From the NCBI GenBank assembly GCA_025449535.1, contig JANWJF010000001.1, positions 485,136 to 549,135 of the forward strand: 64,000 nt of DNA, read 5' to 3'. The notes below the pieces were generated by a model. That model was given only the letters and a program-made list of their open reading frames with translations. It did no database searches and was not told the origin of the DNA. Positions within the stretch are counted from its first letter, which is position 1. Each line of letters starts with the position of its first letter. Source of the DNA: Candidatus Saccharimonadia bacterium (GTDB lineage Bacteria; Patescibacteriota; SICC01). A program made the translations under genes and the position numbers. Below, one piece after another: positions 23,001 through 59,760 of this stretch.

Positions 23001-23284
23001 TGCCGACGTTGGTGGTCAGCTGGATCGTGGTGGGCGCCCTGGCCGGGTTCCTGACCTATTCGTTGTCCCGACGCCGGCTGCCGGGCGGCTTGTTCGCGAA
23101 CCTCGTGGTGGGTATCGTCGGCGCCTTGGTCGGTGGGTACCTGATTTCCGACACCACCGGCACCGACGTCGCCCGCGGCGCGGTGACCTGGGGCATCCTG
23201 GCCGCTGCCCTGGTCGCGGCCCTGACCGCCTCGTTCATCGTCCAAGGCGAAGCGAAGGCGCGGACGAACGGACAGAAATCTTAG
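23000..23284 (+). CDS. GlsB/YeaQ/YmgE family stress-response membrane protein
   Basis: Three glycine-rich TM helices typical of the transglycosylase-associated family. Confidence 0.75.
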   Translation: MPTLVVSWIVVGALAGFLTYSLSRRRLPGGLFANLVVGIVGALVGGYLISDTTGTDVARGAVTWGILAAALVAALTASFIVQGEAKARTNGQKS

Positions 23285-23832
23285 AGTCGGTACACCGTAT
23301 GGTTGGCGGGGTTCATGCCTTCTTCAACCGTGTCGTCCTTGACGACTGCTAAGACGACCTCTTTAATCGTCCCTACGCAGACGCAGCCGTCCTTTAGGTA
23401 CTTTAGGGCTTCCCCATACTGCCTTGCGGGTAAATCTCGCCCGATCGTAATGTGGGGTTCGAAGTTCTTTTCGTACTCCTGGTGACGAGCATCGACATAG
23501 TTGGTGTACTGAACCAGAGCCGACAAGAGCGCTCTCTGAAGGTTGACCAACTGCCGGGCAGACTGGGCACGAATCATGATCGTACTGTCTGGCTCCGTTT
23601 GCTTAGCGACAACTTCATCAAAACGGACAGTCATTTTTCCAGGTAGCTTTCGGTTTGAGAAAAAGTGGTCTAGTTGATTTCGTATTGTGGGAACTTTTTC
23701 ATCTTCTATGAAGCAAGGCTGCTTCAAGGTGTTGTGGAAGTGCCACGGCTCGTCGTACTTTTTTCGAAACTCGTCCAACCAGTCAGGCCGCTCCGTCAGA
23801 CGGAGTTTCGTGTAAACGGCGAATATCCTCAT
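23284..23832 (-). CDS. 2H phosphoesterase superfamily (LigT-like) protein, low-GC
   Basis: Two HxTx motifs (HNTL, HITI); N-terminal part of the listed ORF overlaps tRNAs and is trimmed. Confidence 0.55.
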
Positions 23833-23906
23833 GGTGGCAGTGGCAGGATTCGAACCTGCGACCAACAGCTTATGAGTCTGCTGCTCTACCGCTGAGCTAC
23901 ACTGCC
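23832..23906 (-). tRNA. tRNA-Met (CAT), elongator or Ile2-type
   Basis: Reverse complement folds as a tRNA: ggcagtg...cactgcc acceptor, loop cuCAUaa, GGTTCGAATCC, CCA encoded. Confidence 0.85.
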
Positions 23907-23947
23907 GTGCCCGTACAGTATACGAAATGCCTACCCGTAGGTAGGCA

Positions 23948-24019
23948 TTTCTCCGTGTAGCGGGGGCAGGATTCGAACCTGCGACCTCGTGGTTATGAGC
24001 CACGCGAGCTGCCACTGCT
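23948..24019 (-). tRNA. tRNA-Met (CAT), initiator-like (1:72 mismatch)
   Basis: Reverse complement gcggggtggagcag...ctcataa...ggttcgaatcctgcccccgct resembles bacterial tRNA-fMet. Confidence 0.7.
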
Positions 24020-41461: not shown

Positions 41462-42019
41462 ATGAGGCTCGGGAGGCGTCAGCCTGAGGGGGAAGCGGTA
41501 CCGCAGCACGAACGGCTTTGGAAGCCTTCGGAAGGGCTGTCCATCGTGGACGGGGACACGCGCGACGAGCTGGTCGCGCAGTTCAACGGGATGACGAACC
41601 GGGATACTAACCCGAGTCGGGATTACCGCGACGGTGTTCTTTATCTTGGCGAATCGAGGATAGAGTATGCCCGGTCAGCCGATCTACTTACAGGCCTGGC
41701 AGACGATGATTTTGGTGTATTCCAGATCGATGCCTTAGGGCCGTATGCACCCGAAACGGTCCGAAACATGCGGTTTTACATCTGCTCCGAGGCTCTTGCT
41801 GAAGCAGGAAAGGAGGACTGGGCTTGTCTGCTTGAAGGTAGTCACCTACTCCCGGGCGACGTTGCTCTCCCGCTGCCTGGCAAGTCGTTCGACCCGAAGC
41901 CGATTCTGCCCGATGCAGTGGAGTTTGCTCTGAAGGAAATGCGCTGGCACGAAGAGCTGCGGAAAGCCGTAAAAGAACGACGTCGACCTACCTTTCCGAG
42001 ACCTCGTTTGGCCGTCTAA
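41462..42019 (+). CDS. hypothetical protein
   Basis: ORF track; no motif recognised. Confidence 0.45.
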   Translation: MRLGRRQPEGEAVPQHERLWKPSEGLSIVDGDTRDELVAQFNGMTNRDTNPSRDYRDGVLYLGESRIEYARSADLLTGLADDDFGVFQIDALGPYAPETVRNMRFYICSEALAEAGKEDWACLLEGSHLLPGDVALPLPGKSFDPKPILPDAVEFALKEMRWHEELRKAVKERRRPTFPRPRLAV

Positions 42020-42029
42020 TAAGCTAAAG

Positions 42030-42057
42030 TTGACATAGGTATACATTAGTATACTAT
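42030..42057 (+). promoter_or_regulatory. putative recA promoter (TTGACA -35; TATACT/TACTAT -10) containing GTATAC-N4-GTATAC palindrome
   Basis: AT-rich region about 130 bp upstream of recA start. Confidence 0.4.
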
Positions 42058-42181
42058 CTATTCGTGTCCGGTTAGATCGCGTTTCGACGACAGGTATCCA
42101 CTAGTCATCCACTTGAAACAGCAAGCGACCATAAGGTAGCCTGAAAAGACCGACAAATAATAAATTACGAAGGAAGGTATC

Positions 42182-43297
42182 ATGACACCAGTGGCAGAGA
42201 ATCCCGCCAAGACGACCAAGGAACCGACGGCCAAGCAGGCCCCGGCCAAGACGGCGAAGGAACCGAAGGACGACAAGCCCGTCGGCCAGTTCGTGGTGAG
42301 CGACAAGGTCCGCAAGGAGAAGACCGAGGCGGTCGACATGGCGCTGGCCCAGATCGAGAAGCAGTTCGGCAAGGGCGCGATCATGAAGTTCGACGCCGAC
42401 AGCAAGATGAACGTGGAGTCGGTCTCTACCGGTTCGCTCTCGCTGGACTTGGCGCTCGGCGTCGGCGGCATCCCGAAGGGCCGGATCATCGAGGTCTACG
42501 GTCCGGAATCCAGCGGCAAGACCACGCTGGCCAGCCATATGATCGCCCAGATACAAAAGGAGGGCGGCACCGCCGCGTTCATCGACGCGGAACACGCGTT
42601 CGACCCGGAGTACGCCAAGAAGCTTGGCGTGGACGTCGATGAACTGCTGATCTCGCAGCCCGATGCCGGCGAACAGGCCCTCGACATCGCGGAGACGCTG
42701 ATCAAGAGCGGCGGCATCGACATGATCGTGGTCGATTCCGTGGCCGCGCTGACGCCGCGGGCGGAGATCGAAGGCGACATGGGCGATTCGCACATGGGTC
42801 TGCATGCCCGGCTGATGAGCCAGGCGCTCCGGAAGCTGACCGGGGCCATCTCCCGATCCAATACCACGGTCGTGTTCATCAACCAGATCCGGATGAAGAT
42901 CGGTGTGATGTTCGGCAGCCCCGAGACCGTCACCGGCGGTAACGCGCTGAAGTTCTACTCCTCCGTACGCCTGGACATCCGCCGGGTCGCTCAGCTCAAG
43001 GACGGCGAGACCGTCATCGGCAACCGGACCCGCGTGAAGATCGTGAAGAACAAGGTCGCGCCGCCGTTCCGGACCGCCGAGTTCGACATCATGTACGGCC
43101 AGGGCATCTCGTACGAGGGTGACGTGCTCGACCTTGGCGTGGAGCAGGAGATCGTCCAGAAGGCCGGCGCCTGGTACGAGTACGAAGGTGCCAAGCTCGG
43201 TCAGGGCCGCGAGGCCGCCAAGCAGTACCTCAAGGACAATCCGAAGGTCGTCCAGACGATCGAGCGGAAGGTCCGCGAGGCCGCGGTCGCCGACTGA
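42182..43297 (+). CDS. recA: recombinase RecA
   Basis: [11 protein letters not shown] Walker A and full-length RecA conservation. Confidence 0.97.
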
Positions 43298-55237: not shown

Positions 55238-56239
55238 ATGACTGAAGGAACTCCAGATCGTCGCTTCGAGCTTCCCCGGGAGGAACTGCAGTTCACAGTG
55301 GAACACAACCTTCGGGTGCTAGCGGCAATGGTTGTCCGGCAGGAGCTCGACGAGCTTGGCACGGACGCTGACGACGAGACCGCCGACCTGTCCAGCCGCG
55401 CACTGGAACACCCGAGCGTGATCGTCGATGACGTCATCGACTTCGACGCGACGGAAGCCCGCGTGCTGGCGGTCAGGTTCCCGGCCGATCCCTCGGACGG
55501 TGAGACCGTTCTCTTCGCGGAAGGATACCTGCTCACCGTCAACCGGGACGTGAAGCGAGTGACCAAGCAGAGCGGCCCGGTCCGGATCATGGCCAGCCTG
55601 GACGGGTCGACGGTGATGGTAGAAGGCCTGGACGCACTGAGTGACGACGAACTGCAGGCGGCGCTCGTCGCGACGCACAACGCGTTCCTCGGGACCAACC
55701 GACTGGACCGGGCGGTGCGCCTGGCCTTGCTCGAAGAGAACCTGGACTGGCTTGGTTCCGAGAACGTAGAGGCCGACCAGGGAATGACGGTCGTCCAAAG
55801 CGCCGTCCGGCTGATGGAAGCCGAGGAGCCGGGTTTCGACAACGACCTCAAATGCTGGTACGTGCGCAGCAAAGGTGAACTGGCGCATCTCTCGGAAATC
55901 TCGTTGCTCGACGACAAGCTGATGATCCACGTGGTCGACCGACGGCACGACAAGCACCTGTACTTGGTCTTCCAACGGGGCGAAGACGGTTCCTTCTTTC
56001 CCAGGCATGGCCCCGAACTGCTGGACCCCGGCTTGGTGGCCGACGCGCTGCTCTTGTTCACGCCCGGCAATTACGAACTGGTCAGCGAAGACTACTATCA
56101 GCGCCATAACGGCGCCCAGGCGGTAGAAGAAGTGCTGGGCGAGGAAGAAACCGATAGGTCGGAAAAGGCGCGCCGGGAACGGGAATCCCATGCACGTCAG
56201 CCGGGAACCCGGGACGAGATCGAGGATCAGTACAGGTAA
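55238..56239 (+). CDS. hypothetical acidic protein (333 aa)
   Basis: ORF track; followed by a clean terminator. Confidence 0.5.
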   Translation: MTEGTPDRRFELPREELQFTVEHNLRVLAAMVVRQELDELGTDADDETADLSSRALEHPSVIVDDVIDFDATEARVLAVRFPADPSDGETVLFAEGYLLTVNRDVKRVTKQSGPVRIMASLDGSTVMVEGLDALSDDELQAALVATHNAFLGTNRLDRAVRLALLEENLDWLGSENVEADQGMTVVQSAVRLMEAEEPGFDNDLKCWYVRSKGELAHLSEISLLDDKLMIHVVDRRHDKHLYLVFQRGEDGSFFPRHGPELLDPGLVADALLLFTPGNYELVSEDYYQRHNGAQAVEEVLGEEETDRSEKARRERESHARQPGTRDEIEDQYR

Positions 56240-56289
56240 GGTCGTTTGCTTGAATTAGCAGGCAATCAGTAGCAACCTACAAGTACTAA

Positions 56290-56312
56290 CACACCGCGCG
56301 AGCGGTGTTTTC
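56290..56312 (+). terminator. rho-independent terminator
   Basis: 7-bp stem acaccgc/gcggtgt, loop gcga, then TTTCT. Confidence 0.6.
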
Positions 56313-56315
56313 TAT

Positions 56316-56816
56316 ATGGATTTGATTGAAAACTTACTCAAGGACAAAATCTTCTGGATTAGTGCCGGGGGAACTTTGGTAGTTGTTGCAGTAGCTGGTG
56401 CTATCGCCATTGCATCGTCTAGTGATAGTACCGATTACGCTTCACTCGTGACCAAAACACCAAGCCCAACTGTTGAACCAACTCCTAAGCCCACGCCTTG
56501 CCTGATTAAAGGGAATATTAGCTTCAATACAGGAGAAAAAATATATCACCTGCCTGGTATGGAGTTTTATGACGAAACGGTCATTGAGTCCGAGAAAGGT
56601 GAAAAGTTATTCTGCACTGAACAACAAGCCGTTAAAGAAGGCTGGCGCAAGGCAAAACCTGCTCCACCTCCCCAAGTTCAACAAGGGTATTACGAGGAGG
56701 GATGTGAGGACTTTGAGACTTTTGAGCAAGCATACGATGCGGGATATGAGTGTAATGACTTACCGAGCGAAGACAATATTGAAGATGAAGAAGGCTACGA
56801 AAATTACGAATACTGA
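56316..56816 (+). CDS. AT-rich (about 42% GC) membrane-anchored secreted protein with a conserved small Cys-containing domain and acidic C-terminal tail
   Basis: N-terminal TM, Pro/Thr linker, CLIKGNISFNTGEKIYHLPGMEFYDET ... FCTEQQAVKEGWRKA domain. Confidence 0.55.
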   Translation: MDLIENLLKDKIFWISAGGTLVVVAVAGAIAIASSSDSTDYASLVTKTPSPTVEPTPKPTPCLIKGNISFNTGEKIYHLPGMEFYDETVIESEKGEKLFCTEQQAVKEGWRKAKPAPPPQVQQGYYEEGCEDFETFEQAYDAGYECNDLPSEDNIEDEEGYENYEY

Positions 56817-56824
56817 CCTTAGTA

Positions 56825-57790
56825 TTAACCTTTCCCGTGAAACTTCTTATGCACCTCCCGCAACTGCGGGTTGGTGACGTGGGTGTAGACCTGGGTGGTC
56901 GTGATCGAGGCGTGCCCGAGCATCTGCTGGACGGACCGGATGTCGGCGCCGTTCCGGAGCAGCCCGGTCGCGAAGCTGTGCCGCAGCGTGTGCGGCGTCA
57001 CGTCCTTCACCAGGCCGGCCGCCGCCGCGTACTTCTTGATGATCCGTTGGATCGACCGCGGCGTGAGCCGGAGGTCGGCGCCATCGGCTTCCTTGGCGGC
57101 ATTGGTTGAGTCGCTGCGGGTGAGCAACGGCTTCATCGCGATCTTCCGTTTCAGTAGATAGGCGCGCAGGTATTCACCGGCGCGGTCGGAGAGGAAGACC
57201 AGCCGTGGCTTGTCGCCTTTGCCGCGCACCATGAACTCGCCGCGTTCGGCGTTCACCTGGTCGGTGTCCAGCGCGCAGAGCTCCGAGACGCGAAGGCCGG
57301 TGGAGTAGAGCAGCTCGAGGATCGCGCGGTCGCGGAAGCTCGTGAACGTGTCCTTGGTGCCGGAGGATTCAAGCAAACGTTCCGTCTCCTCCGGCGTCAG
57401 GAACTCGACGCTGCGGCGCTCGGTCTTGCCGAGCTCGATCTTGTCCGCGGAGAGCGCCTTCACGTCCCGCTTGGCGAGGTACTTGAGCAGCGCGCGGATC
57501 GCGATCACGTGGTAGTTCTGGGTGAGCCGCCCGAGCTCGCCACCTTGCGGGGTCGGTTGGCGGTTCAGCCAGAGCCGGAAGCCCCGGACGGCGTCGATCG
57601 AGATGTTGGACGGCTTGCTGACGCCGTGCTTGGCGCCCCAGGCCGCGAACCGGCCGAGGTAGTGGTCGTAGTTCCGGAGGGTGAGCTTGGAAAGCTGCTT
57701 CTCCACCTCGCAGTACTCGAGGAACTGCGTGATCATCTCCGAGAGCTCGGTCTTCGGGCGGGCTGGTTTTGGTGTCGCTTTTTCCGGCAT
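56825..57790 (-). CDS. tyrosine site-specific recombinase (XerC/XerD-like)
   Basis: R...HxxR...Y catalytic pattern (HTLRHSFATGLL ... LGHASITTTQVYTHV). Confidence 0.85.
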   Translation of the reverse strand: MPEKATPKPARPKTELSEMITQFLEYCEVEKQLSKLTLRNYDHYLGRFAAWGAKHGVSKPSNISIDAVRGFRLWLNRQPTPQGGELGRLTQNYHVIAIRALLKYLAKRDVKALSADKIELGKTERRSVEFLTPEETERLLESSGTKDTFTSFRDRAILELLYSTGLRVSELCALDTDQVNAERGEFMVRGKGDKPRLVFLSDRAGEYLRAYLLKRKIAMKPLLTRSDSTNAAKEADGADLRLTPRSIQRIIKKYAAAAGLVKDVTPHTLRHSFATGLLRNGADIRSVQQMLGHASITTTQVYTHVTNPQLREVHKKFHGKG

Positions 57791-57817
57791 GCGCCTGCAT
57801 TTTGCGACATATGCGCT

Positions 57818-57933
57818 GTCTTGTCATTCTGAGCGCAGCGAAGAATCCTGCTGGGTTGCCAGATCCTTCGGTCGCGGAGCCTGTCCTGAGCGAACAAAGC
57901 GAGTCGAACGGGCTCCCTCAGGATGACAAGTAC
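57818..57933. repeat. inverted repeat pair (tcttgtcattctgag / cctcaggatgacaag) flanking about 85 bp immediately upstream of the recombinase start
   Basis: 14/15 complementary positions. Confidence 0.4.
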
Positions 57934-57945
57934 CACCTGGCCAGT

Positions 57946-58025
57946 CATCTGGGGTGGGGCGGGGTCTCCTAACGGGTCGCAATGACGGCGTTAGAAGACC
58001 CCGCGGGTCCACTCCAGATGATTCA
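57946..58025 (-). repeat. R1a: about 80-nt imperfect palindromic repeat beginning at the stop codon of gene 58023-58493
   Basis: Conserved flanks catctggggtggggcgg...gaccccgcgggtccactccagatgattca shared with R1b. Confidence 0.6.
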
Positions 58026-58493
58026 ACTTCCTGACTGTTCGTTTCGGGCATCATGCCGGAAGGAAGCGATCAGAGCACCGACCAGTCCGCCGAAGAGGCC
58101 GGTCAGGCCGAGGATGAGCGCACCGCCGCGGCGGAGCCAGGAGCATTCCTTGCGGCGGCCGGAGGTTCTCAGGATGGTTCCCGAGACCAGTCCGGCACCG
58201 AGGATCGCGCCTGCCGTGATGTAGTTCTCGCCGAGCTCGTGTTCCTCACGGACCGTCGACTCTTCGTACTGCTCTTCCTGCGTCGCGGCTTGCCGCTTGT
58301 CGTCGCGGACCACGTTGATCACCAGCCAGGCGTACGCCGCGGAGAGCGCGGTGGTGATGGCGCCGGGAATAAGCATCCAGCGATTGCGGCGGTGCAGGAT
58401 CATGGTGACCAGTCCGCCAGCCAGCCCGGCGCCGCCCGGCAATCCGATCAGCGTGCATTCCCACACGACGGTGTATTCTTTCTTCTTCGTCAC
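58023..58493 (-). CDS. glycine-zipper membrane protein (156 aa)
   Basis: GxxxG-rich TM helices (GGAGLAGGLV, GAILGAGLVSG, GLTGLFGGLVGALI). Confidence 0.5.
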   Translation of the reverse strand: MTKKKEYTVVWECTLIGLPGGAGLAGGLVTMILHRRNRWMLIPGAITTALSAAYAWLVINVVRDDKRQAATQEEQYEESTVREEHELGENYITAGAILGAGLVSGTILRTSGRRKECSWLRRGGALILGLTGLFGGLVGALIASFRHDARNEQSGS

Positions 58494-58520
58494 GTCGTCC
58501 TTCCGTAGGGGTTGGTCAGG

Positions 58521-58739
58521 TCACTGCGAGCCCTTGAGGCCGACCACGAAGGCCAGTCCCGCGCTGCCGAGGGCGGAGAGGGTAGTCAGGAAGATTCCCA
58601 ACCGGGTGCGTCCGCGGTCCTTGCTGCGCCGGCCCGAGACGGTCAGTCCCACGCCGGAGGCCAAGGTGCCGCCGAGCCCGAATCCCGCCAGCGAGAAGTC
58701 TCGCGCGGCGGCGAAGCTGCTGGTCTTGAATCCTTTCAT
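58521..58739 (-). CDS. small glycine-zipper membrane protein (72 aa)
   Basis: AGFGLGGTLASGVGL and LGSAGLAFVVGL helices. Confidence 0.45.
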   Translation of the reverse strand: MKGFKTSSFAAARDFSLAGFGLGGTLASGVGLTVSGRRSKDRGRTRLGIFLTTLSALGSAGLAFVVGLKGSQ

Positions 58740-58761
58740 CCAACGGTCCCTTCGGTCGTCT

Positions 58762-58800
58762 TTTCATCTCTGGAGTGGAGATGGTTGGCCAGGTTGTTAA
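58762..58800 (-). promoter_or_regulatory. R2a: conserved upstream element with 6-7-6 palindrome CATCTC-N7-GAGATG, centred 35 bp before the start codon of 58521-58739
   Basis: Near-identical 39-nt copy at 59782-59820. Confidence 0.45.
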
Positions 58801-58821
58801 CGTCCGTCCGACCCGGCTTAC

Positions 58822-58903
58822 CATCTGGGGTGGGGCGGAGTCTCATAACGTGTCTCAAGAAGAGAGCGTTACGAGACCCCGCGGGTCCACTCCAGATGAT
58901 TCA
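58822..58903 (-). repeat. R1b: second copy of the about 80-nt palindromic repeat, beginning at the stop codon of gene 58901-59164
   Basis: 29+31 nt flanks identical to R1a; central 22 nt diverged. Confidence 0.6.
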
Positions 58904-59164
58904 TCCTTCCAGTTGGGACGTGTGGCGGCGTAGGGCGCGTTTCGCCCAAAGGATTGCGGTGCCGACGGCCCAGGTCAGGATCAGGGACTGGCTGGTGAGC
59001 ATGATGCCTCCGCCGAACAGCCAGTTGTTGTGTCGACGGCCTTTGCGCATCAGCATGATGCCGGCCATGGTGCCGATGATGCCGAGGAGGCCCCAGGGGG
59101 TCATTTCGCGGCGGTAGGTGTTGTATTCCATGGGCGTGAAGCGTGGCGGCGAGTCGTCAGCCAC
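58901..59164 (-). CDS. small membrane protein (87 aa)
   Basis: Two TM helices; ORF track. Confidence 0.45.
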   Translation of the reverse strand: MADDSPPRFTPMEYNTYRREMTPWGLLGIIGTMAGIMLMRKGRRHNNWLFGGGIMLTSQSLILTWAVGTAILWAKRALRRHTSQLEG

Positions 59165-59206
59165 GGGACTCCTTCCTGTAGTCGTTCCCGGACGGCGAAG
59201 CCGTCC

Positions 59207-59410
59207 CTAGTCGAGGTAGGCCATGAACTCAGCGGTTTTCTCTTCCATGCGGAGTTCTTGGTCGATCGCGAAGCCCAGGCCCAAAAGCAGGGCGACCACG
59301 ATCAGTGAGGCACCTTTGAGGAAGCGCCAGCCTTCGAAGTGAAAGAGACCGGAAAGCATCATCACGAAGCCGGCTCCGCAGCCCGTAGCGGTGGCTGCCG
59401 CGGCTCCCAT
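59207..59410 (-). CDS. small membrane protein (67 aa)
   Basis: Trimmed from a 300-aa overprinted ORF to the hydrophobic C-terminal ATG-started segment. Confidence 0.35.
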   Translation of the reverse strand: MGAAAATATGCGAGFVMMLSGLFHFEGWRFLKGASLIVVALLLGLGFAIDQELRMEEKTAEFMAYLD

Positions 59411-59478
59411 CGCTTCGTACTCGGGCCGGAGGTCGATCTGTTGTCGTGCCACGGGGTTCCTTTCGTCGTTGTCAGCGG

Positions 59479-59760
59479 TCACCCGCCGGAAGTTTGATCT
59501 GCGGTCGTGCCGTTCGGGGAGGCGGAATGCTTTGATCCGATTGCGACTCCGCAGAGCAGTGCCAGGCCAGCGCCCAGGAAGTAGAGCCCGCAACCGATGG
59601 CGAAGAGCTTTCCCTCTTCGTCGCCGCTCGATGTCGACACGACCATCAATGCGGTTCCTGTCGCGAAGATCGCTCCGAGGAGAAAGCCGATGATCAGGCA
59701 AAGCTGTCCGGCGAAGGCCTGGTCCCGCTGGTACTCGTCCTTCGTGTAAGTGTCCTTCAT
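59479..59760 (-). CDS. small glycine-zipper membrane protein (93 aa)
   Basis: GxxxG-rich helices; GGAGG RBS. Confidence 0.45.
   Translation of the reverse strand: MKDTYTKDEYQRDQAFAGQLCLIIGFLLGAIFATGTALMVVSTSSGDEEGKLFAIGCGLYFLGAGLALLCGVAIGSKHSASPNGTTADQTSGG

Follow-up and report, generated by a model that had tools for sequence, protein, structure and literature searches.

A probable one-gene foreign module in a recurrent insertion slot behind an Xer-like recombinase gene of Patescibacteria

Introduction

The stretch of DNA immediately following the stop codon of an Xer-like recombinase gene of Patescibacteria is a hypervariable slot into which foreign modules are recurrently inserted. In the DNA analysed here, a continuous stretch of 64 kb referred to as the window, positions 56240–56824 probably represent one such module (estimated probability about 0.6); it occupies the slot, which runs from the recombinase stop codon to the 3′ end of the neighbouring gene that converges on it. 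The protein family of the cargo is ordinary and it is the locus which is interesting: taken alone, the protein is one more member of the sunset family, set apart by an uncommon acidic tail. Few mobile elements are recognised in the tiny genomes of Patescibacteria, and still foreign surface proteins, toxin–antitoxin pairs and anti-phage genes gather at one defined place, the end of a core recombinase gene.

Results

Composition and divergence of the cargo gene

The cargo gene (56316–56816, + strand) encodes a predicted membrane-anchored surface protein of 166 residues, and the JGI gene caller returns an open reading frame with identical coordinates. Its GC content is 44.1% against 63.4% for the window, and its GC3 is 40%, compared with 90% in the adjacent recombinase gene and an average of 84% in the genes of the genome. 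It has the lowest GC of the 214 open reading frames of at least 100 residues in the window. When GC is plotted in 500-bp steps across the 64 kb (mean 0.634, sd 0.044), the minimum of 0.446 falls at the cargo gene, at position 56301, about 4 sd under the mean. The low GC extends into 76 nt of non-coding DNA 5′ of the gene. The original prediction of an AT-rich gene with foreign-looking codon usage is thus borne out, its figures of 42% for the gene and 65% for the genome being slightly off, and the cargo gene is compositionally foreign DNA. No sigma-70 promoter for it was found on the + strand, and a PADLOC search with the window protein and its 333-residue neighbour gave no matches.

The cargo protein and its gene arrangement were found unchanged in three independent samples. 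A more distant copy of the cassette is present at locus L004, where the cargo gene shows 41 synonymous and 9 non-synonymous codon differences from that of the window over 113 codons; the gene evolves under purifying selection. The two cassettes differ at 15% of their DNA and the two recombinase genes at 13%. The cargo had been predicted to be recently acquired. It is foreign, and it is missing from the slot in every close relative examined, but divergence close to that of the host gene, together with purifying selection, leaves ‘recently’ unsupported; long vertical inheritance of the cassette is possible, though without amelioration.

A conserved Xer-like recombinase

The tyrosine recombinase gene (56825–57790, − strand, 321 residues) lies tail to tail with the cargo gene, and the predicted 8-bp gap is the spacer at 56817–56824, which in direct reading separates the two convergent stop codons. 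The protein has the catalytic domain of tyrosine recombinases (R-K-H-R-H/W-Y; Phage_integrase, E=3.7e-43) and an N-terminal SAM-like domain (Phage_int_SAM_1, E=1.5e-9), and its translation contains the motifs GLRVSEL, GKGDKPR, HTLRHSF and LGHASITTTQVYTH. It scores below the cut-offs of the equivalog models for XerC and XerD (TIGR02224/TIGR02225), with 245.4 against 335.2 bits for XerC and 248.2 against 329.6 bits for XerD, below those of PRK00283 (246.9 against 279) and XerA (209.2 against 220 bits), and also below that of XerS. The GC content of the gene is 64.9%. Among the GTDB Patescibacteria genomes 399 relatives were found at 52–91% identity, and the neighbourhood is fixed in the order PAP2, recombinase, slot, YchF, S6/SSB/S18 and EF-P in lineages down to ~70% identity. 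The gene thus belongs to the conserved core of Patescibacteria, is Xer-like and syntenic, and does not encode the integrase of an element, in agreement with the suggestion that it might be the chromosomal Xer. There is no paralogue of it within the 64-kb window, no dif site was identified at the locus, and the cumulative GC skew has no inflection at 56–57 kb or elsewhere in the window.

The last 83 nt of the gene (56825–56907, − strand) comprise the stop codon and the codons for S-I-T-T-T-Q-V-Y-T-H-V...G-K-G, with the codon for the catalytic Tyr302 at 56885–56887. The only TTT codon of the recombinase (1 of 10 Phe codons) and its only CAT codon (1 of 9 His codons) both fall in the last 8 codons.

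The inverted repeat that had been predicted beyond the recombinase is real, and is positioned upstream (5′) of the gene. It bounds a sequence of ~110 nt just upstream of the recombinase start codon (57820–57930), with arms of 14 nt at 57820–57833 and 57917–57930 which match at 13 of 14 positions, and the sequence has a folding z of −2.9. It is single-copy among all fetched loci and occurs in this lineage only.

A hypervariable slot after the recombinase stop codon

In a tblastn search of 24 related loci, the cargo protein and the 333-residue neighbour were both absent, and the recombinase and YchF genes remained linked. What fills the slot varies from locus to locus (L007, L008/L011/L013, L010, L014/L212, L169, L168, L004, L208, L210 and L211). 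The inserts are markedly low in GC in six high-GC lineages, lying 20–29 GC points under the host, and genes of native GC fill many other slots. In the clade of at least 80% identity (n=9), the GC of the 600 nt past the recombinase stop codon minus that of the recombinase gene averages −0.177, against −0.022 in 137 other loci and −0.024 for a control taken upstream of the recombinase; loci L087 and L088 are further outliers. Both of these loci came from a metagenome scan with the recombinase, in which the best relative was 70% identical.

The low-GC inserts encode secreted proteins, a toxin–antitoxin pair and defence helicase–nucleases. The proteins include HTH_17 with Fic/DOC, an SF1 helicase–REase (PADLOC PDC-S37, 273 bits), an HNH–DEAD helicase (DpdF-like, 322 bits), and G5-domain and Excalibur-like secreted proteins. 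Modules range from 0.6 to 2.7 kb, and the window insert consists of one gene only. None of 10 cargo proteins from L087, L004, L010, L014, L169 and L011, a set without two G5-domain proteins of L004 and the L168 cargo, contains a Phage_integrase or other recombinase domain. The window insert combines foreign composition with absence from relatives, two features of genomic islands that target gene 3′ ends. Comparison of synteny had been proposed to settle whether the region is an insertion, and it points to one. The original prediction did not foresee that insertions recur at the 3′ end of the recombinase gene, which makes the adjacency of cargo and recombinase no coincidence.

Duplicated 3′ ends of the recombinase gene

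Scanning 165 loci for repeats of the recombinase 3′ end revealed long direct repeats (~78 nt, including the catalytic-tyrosine codon) in L004 (76 nt, 97%) and L087 (79 nt, 94%) only; two loci had 17-nt matches. The recombinases of L004 and L087 are only ~70% identical to each other, and the two remnants start at the same nucleotide, C|CGATCAC. In both loci the repeats flank cargo without an integrase. L004 reads as a series of tandem modules of which the newest adjoins the recombinase gene, and a second assembler recovers it in the same arrangement (L005). The window cassette is present in L004, where it is joined to a recombinase-end remnant: homology between the two loci extends from the sunset gene across the spacer into the recombinase end, and halts exactly at 56907 (2884 in L004), which is the repeat boundary. 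The spacer and its flanking stop-codon context are common to the window and the L004 remnant junction.

In the window there is no second copy of the recombinase 3′ end, either at the left boundary or between the recombinase and YchF, so the mechanism of integration is transferred to it from two other lineages. A candidate decayed remnant at the left boundary of the window scored inside the null from shuffled queries and was rejected. Nor is there a remnant at the L010 boundary or at the outer boundary of L004. A search of the last 174 nt of the recombinase gene for an Xer-type palindrome (arms of 9–11 bp, spacer of 5–8 bp) found none at the crossover, so there is no evident core site for the recombinase. 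At synonymous sites, the bin of the last 26 codons is the most conserved (0.85); as the other bins stand at 0.83, the expected step of homogenisation is not clearly seen. No circular or free form of a module was found in pattern scans of viral and metagenome sequences, and the recombinase 3′ segment had 0 matches on viral contigs as a possible free attP.

A conserved element at the distal edge of the insert

The distal edge of the low-GC insert is formed by a conserved element of ~70 nt (56243–56313, + strand). It contains an imperfect 7-6-7 palindrome, in which TTGCTTG (56246–56252) and CAGGCAA (56259–56265) are separated by AATTAG. This is followed by a GCAA-rich block and by a terminator-like hairpin with its T-run, and the element ends 2 nt 5′ of the cargo ATG. 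The hairpin (56291–56308) has a 7-bp stem and a GCGA loop and precedes TTTTCT; it accounts for the terminator that had been noticed ahead of the cargo gene. Terminator-like motifs occur in the region at the number expected by chance (3 seen, 3.1 expected); this hairpin is kept in four independent copies.

The four copies of the element, one in the window, two in L004 and one in L010, score 71–75 bits with nhmmer, and their alignment has 47 invariant columns. Each either bounds a low-GC island on its distal side or lies immediately 5′ of a gene for a transmembrane or secreted protein, and the element marks the far edge of three islands. No full-length match was found by nhmmer in ~210 other loci, and the exact pattern had 0 matches in contigs of viruses and of JGI metagenomes. 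With a looser pattern of 15 bases there were 37 viral matches, which are confined to the pattern region and fit chance. Rfam contains no family for the element, the inverted repeat or the hairpins; a match to mir-4776 was rejected as a spurious long-hairpin match.

The cargo protein

The transmembrane anchor, Pro/Thr linker, Cys motif peptides and acidic tail that had been read from the translation are all present. The anchor (residues 12–34; Kyte–Doolittle 19-residue maximum 2.2) is followed by a Pro/Thr/Ser linker (residues 35–61), a sunset domain (residues 62–114, nt 56499–56657), a Pro-rich spacer and an acidic Tyr/Cys tail (residues 124–166, nt 56685–56813), whose 43 residues include 17 D/E, 7 Y and 0 K/R. 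The sunset model NF051437 matches residues 64–114 over its full length (profile positions 1–42 of 42) at 33.5 bits (cut-off 27; E=3e-8). The protein carries the signature C-x-IKGNIS-x3-GEKIYHLPG-x3-Y-x2-T-x-I-x4-GE-x-(W/L)FC-x-E-x2-A-x3-GWRKA. In the 17-sequence alignment from which the signature columns were taken, IKGN, S, IYH, P, Y, T, I, GE, F, A and R are invariant, and the two Cys, G and W are nearly so. All of these columns are kept in the window protein, the sole departure being L98 in place of the usual W before F99–C100. In an AF2 model (pLDDT 90–98), the domain is predicted to be compact, with a beta-beta-beta-alpha arrangement, and C62 and C100 make up its conserved Cys pair.

The sunset family is large, with 6,438 representative clusters, and its members include secreted nucleases, membrane proteins of phage ‘moron’ type and certain ribosomal proteins. 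Among 145 representatives the fusion partners are SNase (23), SH3_3 (9) and LysM (3–5), in keeping with the original prediction of a Cys-containing module often fused to secreted nucleases. The domain is usually C-terminal, a frequent layout that does not formally define the family: of the 150 best representatives, nearly all stop 1–3 residues after it. In the window protein, and otherwise only in P0001 and P0003, the domain is instead followed by a tail of 52 residues which is acidic, rich in Pro and furnished with another Cys pair. The cargo protein is also matched by phrog_21287, ‘membrane associated protein’ (E=1.9e-9). Five homologues carry a precomputed Pfam assignment to PF27542 (ArfC), that of P0003 being marked ‘weak’; PF27542 does not appear in the Pfam hmmscan of the window protein, and the model matched nothing in any hmmscan and was possibly absent. 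A limited literature search on ‘sunset domain’ and ArfC/Rv0901 returned nothing useful.

No significant relative of the sunset domain was found in the PDB by sequence or fold. A weak Foldseek match to the N-terminal domain of Ada (1u8b_A; TMq 0.52, E=5.3), an hhalign comparison with Ada PF02805 (E=0.0045, 7.7% probability, weakening to E=0.022 with a deeper profile) and one family member matching PF02805 at E=9e-4, under the cut-off, only hint at remote kinship with this DNA-binding domain, whose Cys4 zinc site is not conserved in the sunset domain. For the tail, an Excalibur (PF05901) identity was rejected, there being no Pfam match at E≤1. Compared by eye with the L010 cargo, the tail has only C-x-DF-x-T-x-E-x-A...C in common with the first half of the Excalibur motif.

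Discussion

How modules may enter the slot

The repeats in L004 and L087 are probably the footprint of integrase-less modules which enter the 3′ end of the recombinase gene and supply it with a replacement end. Such modules would arrive as circular DNA and recombine within the last ~80 nt of the gene. As each module would bring its own copy of the recombinase end, the gene, including its catalytic-tyrosine codon, would be rebuilt, and the old end would be displaced outwards. The window cassette, made up of the sunset gene, the 8-bp spacer and the recombinase end, would be a unit of this kind that later lost its distal remnant. Insertion is most likely catalysed by the adjacent recombinase itself; it is possible that RecA-dependent Campbell integration, or the integrase of a helper element, drives insertion instead. 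A bolder and rather unlikely extension is that the housekeeping Xer-like recombinase also serves a cassette-capture platform as its integrase, with the attachment site inside the 3′ end of the recombinase gene. Integrase-less secreted-protein, toxin–antitoxin and defence modules would then insert serially, each renewing the last ~26 codons with the catalytic tyrosine and pushing older modules outward.

Alternative explanations

The slot may instead be a permissive gap between convergent genes, without site-specific insertion, whose contents are swapped by homologous recombination after DNA uptake and anchored in the recombinase gene on one side; the 78-nt repeats would then be side effects of a single RecA-mediated (Campbell) crossover with circularised fragments in which the end of the gene was present by chance. 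Between L004 and L014 the left breakpoint falls exactly past the terminator of the neighbouring gene and the right one at the recombinase stop codon, which indicates that the whole intergenic interval was exchanged. The crossover without a palindromic core site, the lack of remnants in the window, in L010 and at the outer edge of L004, and the native-GC genes in many slots fit a homologous swap, as does the report that most gene transfer in Patescibacteria takes place between Patescibacteria (PMC12455944). Random crossovers or breaks, however, would not predict that repeats in two lineages only ~70% identical cover the same segment from the same nucleotide, and inserts so far below their host in GC do not come from close relatives with alignable flanks. 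Moreover, 78 nt is short for efficient RecA-dependent integration. Such swapping is rather improbable. Less probable still is that TTGCTTG-N6-CAGGCAA is a dif-like site of a single Xer-like recombinase, and that modules bounded by such sites are moved by Xer recombination as in IMEX arrays and Acinetobacter pdif modules. The left element, with its inverted repeat and 6-bp spacer, does have the geometry expected of a tyrosine-recombinase core; it is found only at island edges beside the recombinase, and in L004 a pair in direct orientation flanks a block of cargo. Single-recombinase Xer systems keep gene and site as one module, which IMEXs exploit (PMC5357621; PMC9765430). The inserts of the window and L010, however, have one site each and no match at the recombinase side, the arms are short (7 nt, 6/7 complementary), and the locus lacks a GC-skew inflection. 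The element is also missing from the loci of close relatives without low-GC islands, which it would not be if it were the conserved chromosomal dif of this position. Since it always lies directly 5′ of a secreted-protein gene, a promoter or leader would fit equally.

Two further readings concern the origin of the genes themselves. That the pair is one recent arrival, a small mobile element which brought the AT-rich gene and has the recombinase as its integrase, could be argued from the 8 bp between them, from the scores under the XerC/XerD equivalog cut-offs and from the inverted repeat beyond the recombinase. The gene has host composition (GC3 90%), however, with hundreds of Patescibacteria relatives and retained PAP2, YchF, S6/SSB/S18 and EF-P neighbours, and the inverted repeat, present once and in this lineage only, lacks a counterpart on the far side; synteny and composition refute this reading. 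Equally, it is very unlikely that the cargo gene is native and owes its low GC to amino-acid composition or to selection on expression. Purifying selection and stable presence in three samples of the species would suit a native gene, but amino-acid content cannot yield a GC3 of 40% where that of the genome is 84%, the low GC includes the non-coding DNA upstream, and the nearest relatives lack the gene.

Relation to known systems

The preferred reading, a foreign module in a recurrent slot, recalls the islands found at the 3′ ends of tRNA and tmRNA genes, and SGI1, which one report places at the 3′ end of trmE (PMC6531882). There, as here, a conserved gene has DNA of foreign composition at its 3′ end. 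In L004 and L087 the parallel extends to a direct repeat made of the displaced gene end, and to a target that an element-borne replacement would keep intact; modules also accumulate in tandem with the newest beside the gene, as in L004. Unlike such islands, the cargo modules of the slot are tiny (0.6–2.7 kb) and have no integrase, and the target is a tyrosine recombinase gene whose replaced segment includes the catalytic tyrosine. A non-exhaustive search of the literature found no description of the end of a tyrosine recombinase gene as an insertion target of this kind.

In IMEXs and single-recombinase Xer–dif systems (XerS/difSL, XerH/difH, XerA/dif, and XerL/dif with LME-1), integrase-less DNA likewise lies at or beside a housekeeping Xer-type recombinase, the gene and the insertion site are physically linked, as they are for XerS/difSL, and arrays can grow (PMC5357621, PMC9765430). 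IMEXs, however, have dif-like sites at both junctions, whereas here the palindrome-bearing element is at one edge only and the junction repeats are the coding 3′ end of the recombinase gene, with no dif-like palindrome at the crossover. The locus differs from Xer/dif modules too in having no GC-skew switch and a recombinase that falls under the XerC, XerD, XerA and XerS cut-offs. Integrons similarly combine a recombinase gene with an adjoining array of small, mostly promoter-less, integrase-less modules, with the latest insertion beside the recombinase and a short conserved structured element (here a palindrome and a hairpin) at cassette edges. In contrast to integrons, the recombinase is not an IntI (TIGR02249, 135.5 bits against 265, in two separate stretches), the array is at the 3′ end of the recombinase gene and not upstream, the conserved element is 5′ of the cargo genes with no long imperfect hairpin of the attC kind, and the repeats are copies of the gene end.

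Were the recombinase to catalyse these insertions, streamlined episymbionts would have a simple, testable route to surface and defence functions, the attachment site would be of a new kind that rewrites the catalytic end of the enzyme, and duplicated xer 3′ ends would be a practical marker for cargo in metagenomes. A cassette-capture platform, if true, would be functionally integron-like with another site architecture, in ultra-small symbiotic bacteria.

The possible role of the cargo protein

The N-terminal hydrophobic segment would export or anchor the product of the window cassette, such that the sunset domain, and then the acidic Tyr-rich tail, would be displayed outside the cell. There the domain is tentatively suggested to bind a cell-surface polymer, for which nucleic acid would be the likeliest choice because the domain has nucleases and ribosomal proteins as partners; alternatively, the ligand may belong to the cell wall. 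The arrangement which precedes the domain is not peculiar to this protein: most members of the sunset family, like the window protein, have an N-terminal transmembrane or signal segment and a low-complexity linker before the domain.

Layout and base composition of the locus

What is noteworthy about this locus is the 3' end of a conserved Xer-like gene, where a cargo slot with precise bounds recurs and duplication has left two independent footprints. In the window the cargo is the AT-rich sunset gene (56316–56816, + strand; 166 aa, GC 44.1%, GC3 40%), which converges with the Xer-like tyrosine recombinase gene (56825–57790, − strand; 321 aa, GC 64.9%, GC3 90%); as read from the sequence, their stop codons lie 8 bp apart. 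A terminator-like hairpin with a T-run (56291–56314) stands immediately 5' of the sunset ATG, and an inverted repeat (arms 57820–57833 and 57917–57930) lies on the 5' side of the recombinase gene. Both ORFs and the gap between them are as described in the original prediction. Whole-window GC is 63.4%, and the GC plot that had been proposed as a check (500-bp windows: mean 0.634, sd 0.044) has its minimum, 0.446, at 56301, coincident with the sunset gene, which has the lowest GC among the 214 window ORFs of at least 100 aa. The low-GC segment covers approximately 585 bp, from the stop of the upstream 333-aa gene (56239) to that of the recombinase (56825). The identical protein and arrangement were found in three independent samples, in one of them on a 681-kb contig.

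Two assemblies break at the locus: the contig (67,277 bp) of a same-species NCBI MAG stops within the sunset gene, leaving a 99-aa partial protein (P0002), and Logan contig L003 stops within the recombinase gene. These breaks may reflect strain heterogeneity in the slot.

The recombinase

The recombinase contains Phage_integrase and SAM-like domains, and its catalytic motifs are readable in the translation. Its scores do not reach the equivalog cut-offs for XerD, XerC, XerA or XerS and fall well short of the one for integron integrases. A role as the integrase of a small element was set aside: its composition matches the host, 399 relatives (52–91% identity, nearly all labelled Patescibacteria/CPR) occur among GTDB species representatives, and the gene order PAP2–recombinase–slot–YchF–S6/SSB/S18–EF-P is kept down to about 70% identity. 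The protein database holds 398 relatives at E ≤ 1e-100. Within the 64-kb window there is no recombinase paralogue and no GC-skew switch. The recombinase is a core chromosomal Xer-like gene, and the caveat that it might be the chromosomal Xer was borne out by its synteny, relatives and composition.

The sunset protein and its domain family

An HMM search, likewise proposed beforehand, identified the NCBIfam 'sunset' domain NF051437 at residues 64–114 (33.5 bits, above the cut-off of 27). The protein has no match in the local Pfam copy; its homologues carry precomputed PF27542 ('ArfC') matches. A short N-terminus (residues 1–11) precedes a hydrophobic TM anchor (12–34), a Pro/Thr/Ser-rich linker (35–61), the sunset domain (62–114), in which C62 and C100 are nearly invariant, a PAPPPQVQQ spacer (115–123) and a tail (124–166) with 17 acidic, no basic and 7 Tyr residues and with C130 and C146. 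The acidic tail recurs in P0001 and P0003 alone. No homologue is closer than P0001, which is 86.5% identical over the C-terminal 126 residues and has a longer, unlike N-terminus. Between the sunset gene and its counterpart in the related locus L004 there are 41 synonymous and 9 non-synonymous changes, which argues that the gene is functional.

The family comprises 6,438 representative clusters at E ≤ 0.001, and NCBIfam also has L17 and L20 'sunset domain variants'. The domain forms the protein's end in nearly all members, and up to four tandem copies occur. Among 145 representatives its partners are SNase (23), SH3_3 (9) and LysM (3–5), with HNH, muramidase and PG_binding_1 as occasional partners; the nuclease association given for the module in the original prediction was thus correct. 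Phage-encoded membrane proteins also carry the domain (phrog_21287, Clostridium phage phiCT19406A, Bacillus phage G). The cargo product is an ordinary member of this known family with an unusual tail. From the partner domains we infer that the sunset domain may bind a polymer outside the cell, nucleic acid being somewhat likelier than cell wall.

AlphaFold predicts three short strands and a helix for the domain (pLDDT 90–98). No solved structure matches it by sequence, nor significantly by fold, the best geometric overlaps being with the Ada DNA-binding N-terminal domain (TM about 0.5). The C-terminal helix motif is paired with that of Ada by hhalign (E=0.0045 at 7.7% probability, a match that weakens when the profile is deepened), and one family member reaches PF02805 at E=9e-4; a relationship with Ada is an unproven lead. 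The DNA of the domain core (56505–56578) and a hypothetical gene of the Mesobacillus foraminis plasmid NZ_CP033045.1 share 80% identity across 74 nt, a nucleotide conservation unusually high for a short domain across phyla.

A variable slot between the recombinase and YchF

The slot, from recombinase stop codon to YchF, measures 0.86 to 5.4 kb among the loci with related recombinases (L-numbers), and its first gene varies by lineage: a P-loop kinase-like gene (L008, L011, L013), a 522-aa HNH-DEAD helicase (L014, L212), a 167-aa cytoplasmic protein (L169), cytidylate kinase (L211) or other genes (L208, L210). Between lineages, sequence identity gives out over the final one to three recombinase codons. 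Markedly low-GC DNA opens the slot in six lineages whose recombinase genes are high in GC (slot-start GC minus recombinase GC: window −0.21, L168 −0.29, L004 −0.26, L010 −0.25, L088 −0.24, L087 −0.15). The mean offset is −0.177 in the clade of at least 80% identity versus −0.022 in 137 other loci, and the upstream control gave −0.024. Products of the low-GC inserts are G5-domain proteins, an Excalibur-like protein and TM proteins, all secreted or membrane-located; HTH_17 paired with Fic/DOC; an SF1 helicase of 1175 aa that carries a restriction-endonuclease-like domain (PADLOC PDC-S37, 273 bits); and an HNH-like protein. The cargo proteins scanned contain no integrase domain. In the synteny comparison, tblastn of 24 related loci found no match to the 166-aa sunset protein, which, with its low GC, upholds the claim of foreign cargo: the sunset gene is foreign.

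The 333-aa neighbour immediately left of the insert (55238–56239) is acidic and of native GC, has no Pfam, NCBIfam, PHROG or PADLOC match and, being likewise absent from the tblastn results for the 24 loci, is lineage-specific. The low-GC island of L087 (5889–11549; at least 5.6 kb) lies beside a recombinase only 70% identical to that of the window; HTH_17 and Fic/DOC stand between direct repeats, followed by the 1175-aa helicase, which has an MTES_1575/DUF559 endonuclease domain and also matches Hhe besides the candidate system PDC-S37. In two MAGs the 522-aa HNH + DEAD/Helicase_C gene (L014 7002–8570, L212 10002–11570) overlaps the recombinase stop by 4 nt; in PADLOC its product scores highest against DpdF (322 bits) and PsyrT (228 bits), and the gene may serve on its own in defence or as a toxin. 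The P-loop kinase-like gene (MRISILGLSGSGKT...) begins on the recombinase stop codon, co-directionally, in three species (L008 6960–7490, L011 6957–7460, L013 6921–7490); where the genome is high-GC, the gene has 49–52% GC, clearly under its host.

Insertion footprints and a possible mechanism

We looked in 165 loci for duplication of the final 150 nt of their own recombinase gene. Long repeats occur in two only, L004 (76 nt, 97% identical) and L087 (79 nt, 94% identical), whose recombinases are only about 70% identical to one another; two more loci have 17-nt matches. Both long copies are direct repeats that begin at the same nucleotide (...C/CGATCAC..., the slash marking the boundary), within the codons for the catalytic-tyrosine motif S-I-T-T-T-Q-V-Y-T-H-V, and extend to the gene end. 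In L087 a 765-bp HTH + Doc module lies between the repeats, and the helicase-nuclease gene directly abuts the far side of the second copy, or remnant. In L004, for which a second assembler gave the same gene order (L005), 2.6 kb of cargo lies between the repeats; past the remnant come the P0001 gene, one more gene and a copy of a 70-nt element. The window and L004 are homologous at the DNA level (84.6% over 430 nt) in a stretch that leads from the sunset gene across the 8-bp spacer into the recombinase end; its limit there coincides to the nucleotide with the boundary of the repeat (window 56907 = L004 2884).

On the simplest reading, the mobile unit would be 'cargo + recombinase end', recombining inside the last ~80 nt of the recombinase gene, and the sunset cassette of L004 would have been pushed outward by a later arrival. 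The window has no remnant copy, so that there the mechanism would follow from homology with L004. No Xer-type palindrome is evident around the crossover; synonymous-site conservation is highest in the bin of the last 26 codons, but not distinctly so. The final eight codons contain the only TTT and the only CAT of the gene, both of which other lineages conserve. Pattern scans of viral and metagenome contigs found no free or circular form of the module.

The locus resembles a genomic-island site at a gene 3' end in its direct repeats, which L004 and L087 have, and in the likely target restoration and tandem accumulation. IMEX and single-recombinase Xer/dif modules likewise place integrase-less DNA beside a housekeeping recombinase (PMC5357621, PMC9765430), and the likeness to an integron is superficial; the locus does not pass the defining tests of either integron or IMEX. 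That the Xer-like recombinase operates the slot as a self-targeting, integron-like capture platform seems rather unlikely, with roughly one chance in five. According to a study of Patescibacteria gene exchange, genomic islands number in the hundreds; the text of that study mentions neither integrases nor recombinases (PMC12455944). A limited literature search turned up no account of insertion into the 3' end of the xer-like gene itself.

The original prediction held as to foreign cargo, nuclease-associated module and possible chromosomal Xer. Its view of the acquisition as recent is unsupported, since the cassette and its L004 counterpart differ (15%) roughly as much as the recombinases do (13%). 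Either each lineage took its cassette from a mobile pool that is itself diverged, or amelioration has been resisted.

Repeats and other features of the window

The left element of ~70 nt (56243–56313) recurs in L010 and L004, at the distal edge of all three islands, with one further copy inside the L004 island; it is missing from relatives without low-GC islands. Every copy immediately precedes a gene whose product is a TM or secreted protein, and combines an imperfect 7-6-7 palindrome with a GCAA-rich block, an invariant GC hairpin (loop variable, 3–5 nt) and a T-run 4–15 nt from the start codon. In L004 it starts 10 nt past the end of the homology with L014, just beyond the conserved neighbour's terminator. 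These four copies could represent a promoter/leader with attenuator, an insulating terminator or a recombination site.

On the other side of the recombinase, the inverted-repeat-bounded ~110 nt (57820–57930; arms CTTGTCATTCTGAG and CTCAGGATGACAAG) lies between its start codon and a hairpin repeat, is single-copy among all fetched loci and is confined to the window's lineage; its left arm holds the sole sigma-70-like −35 hexamer found upstream of the recombinase. Between recombinase and PAP2 runs a series of small ORFs (58023–59760; JGI calls of 156, 72, 76–87, 91 and 93 aa), predicted short membrane proteins, none with an above-cut-off Pfam match. Two copies of an ~85–95-nt sequence (57930–58025 and 58806–58903; 88% column identity), each just downstream of one such ORF on the − strand (58023–58493 and 58901–59164), fold as very stable long hairpins (−51 kcal/mol; z = −7.6 and −7.2). 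Their sole Rfam match, to a miRNA, is spurious; candidate identities are terminators, REP/MITE-like repeats and a portion of a duplicated gene unit.

The window has three other low-GC spots. One, at 41462–42019, is an ORF of 185 aa that shortly precedes a RecA-like ORF (42182–43297) and has ~50% GC in its second half (41701–42201); those at 1551–2451 and 23251–24001 coincide with tRNA-Asn and two tRNA-Met genes.
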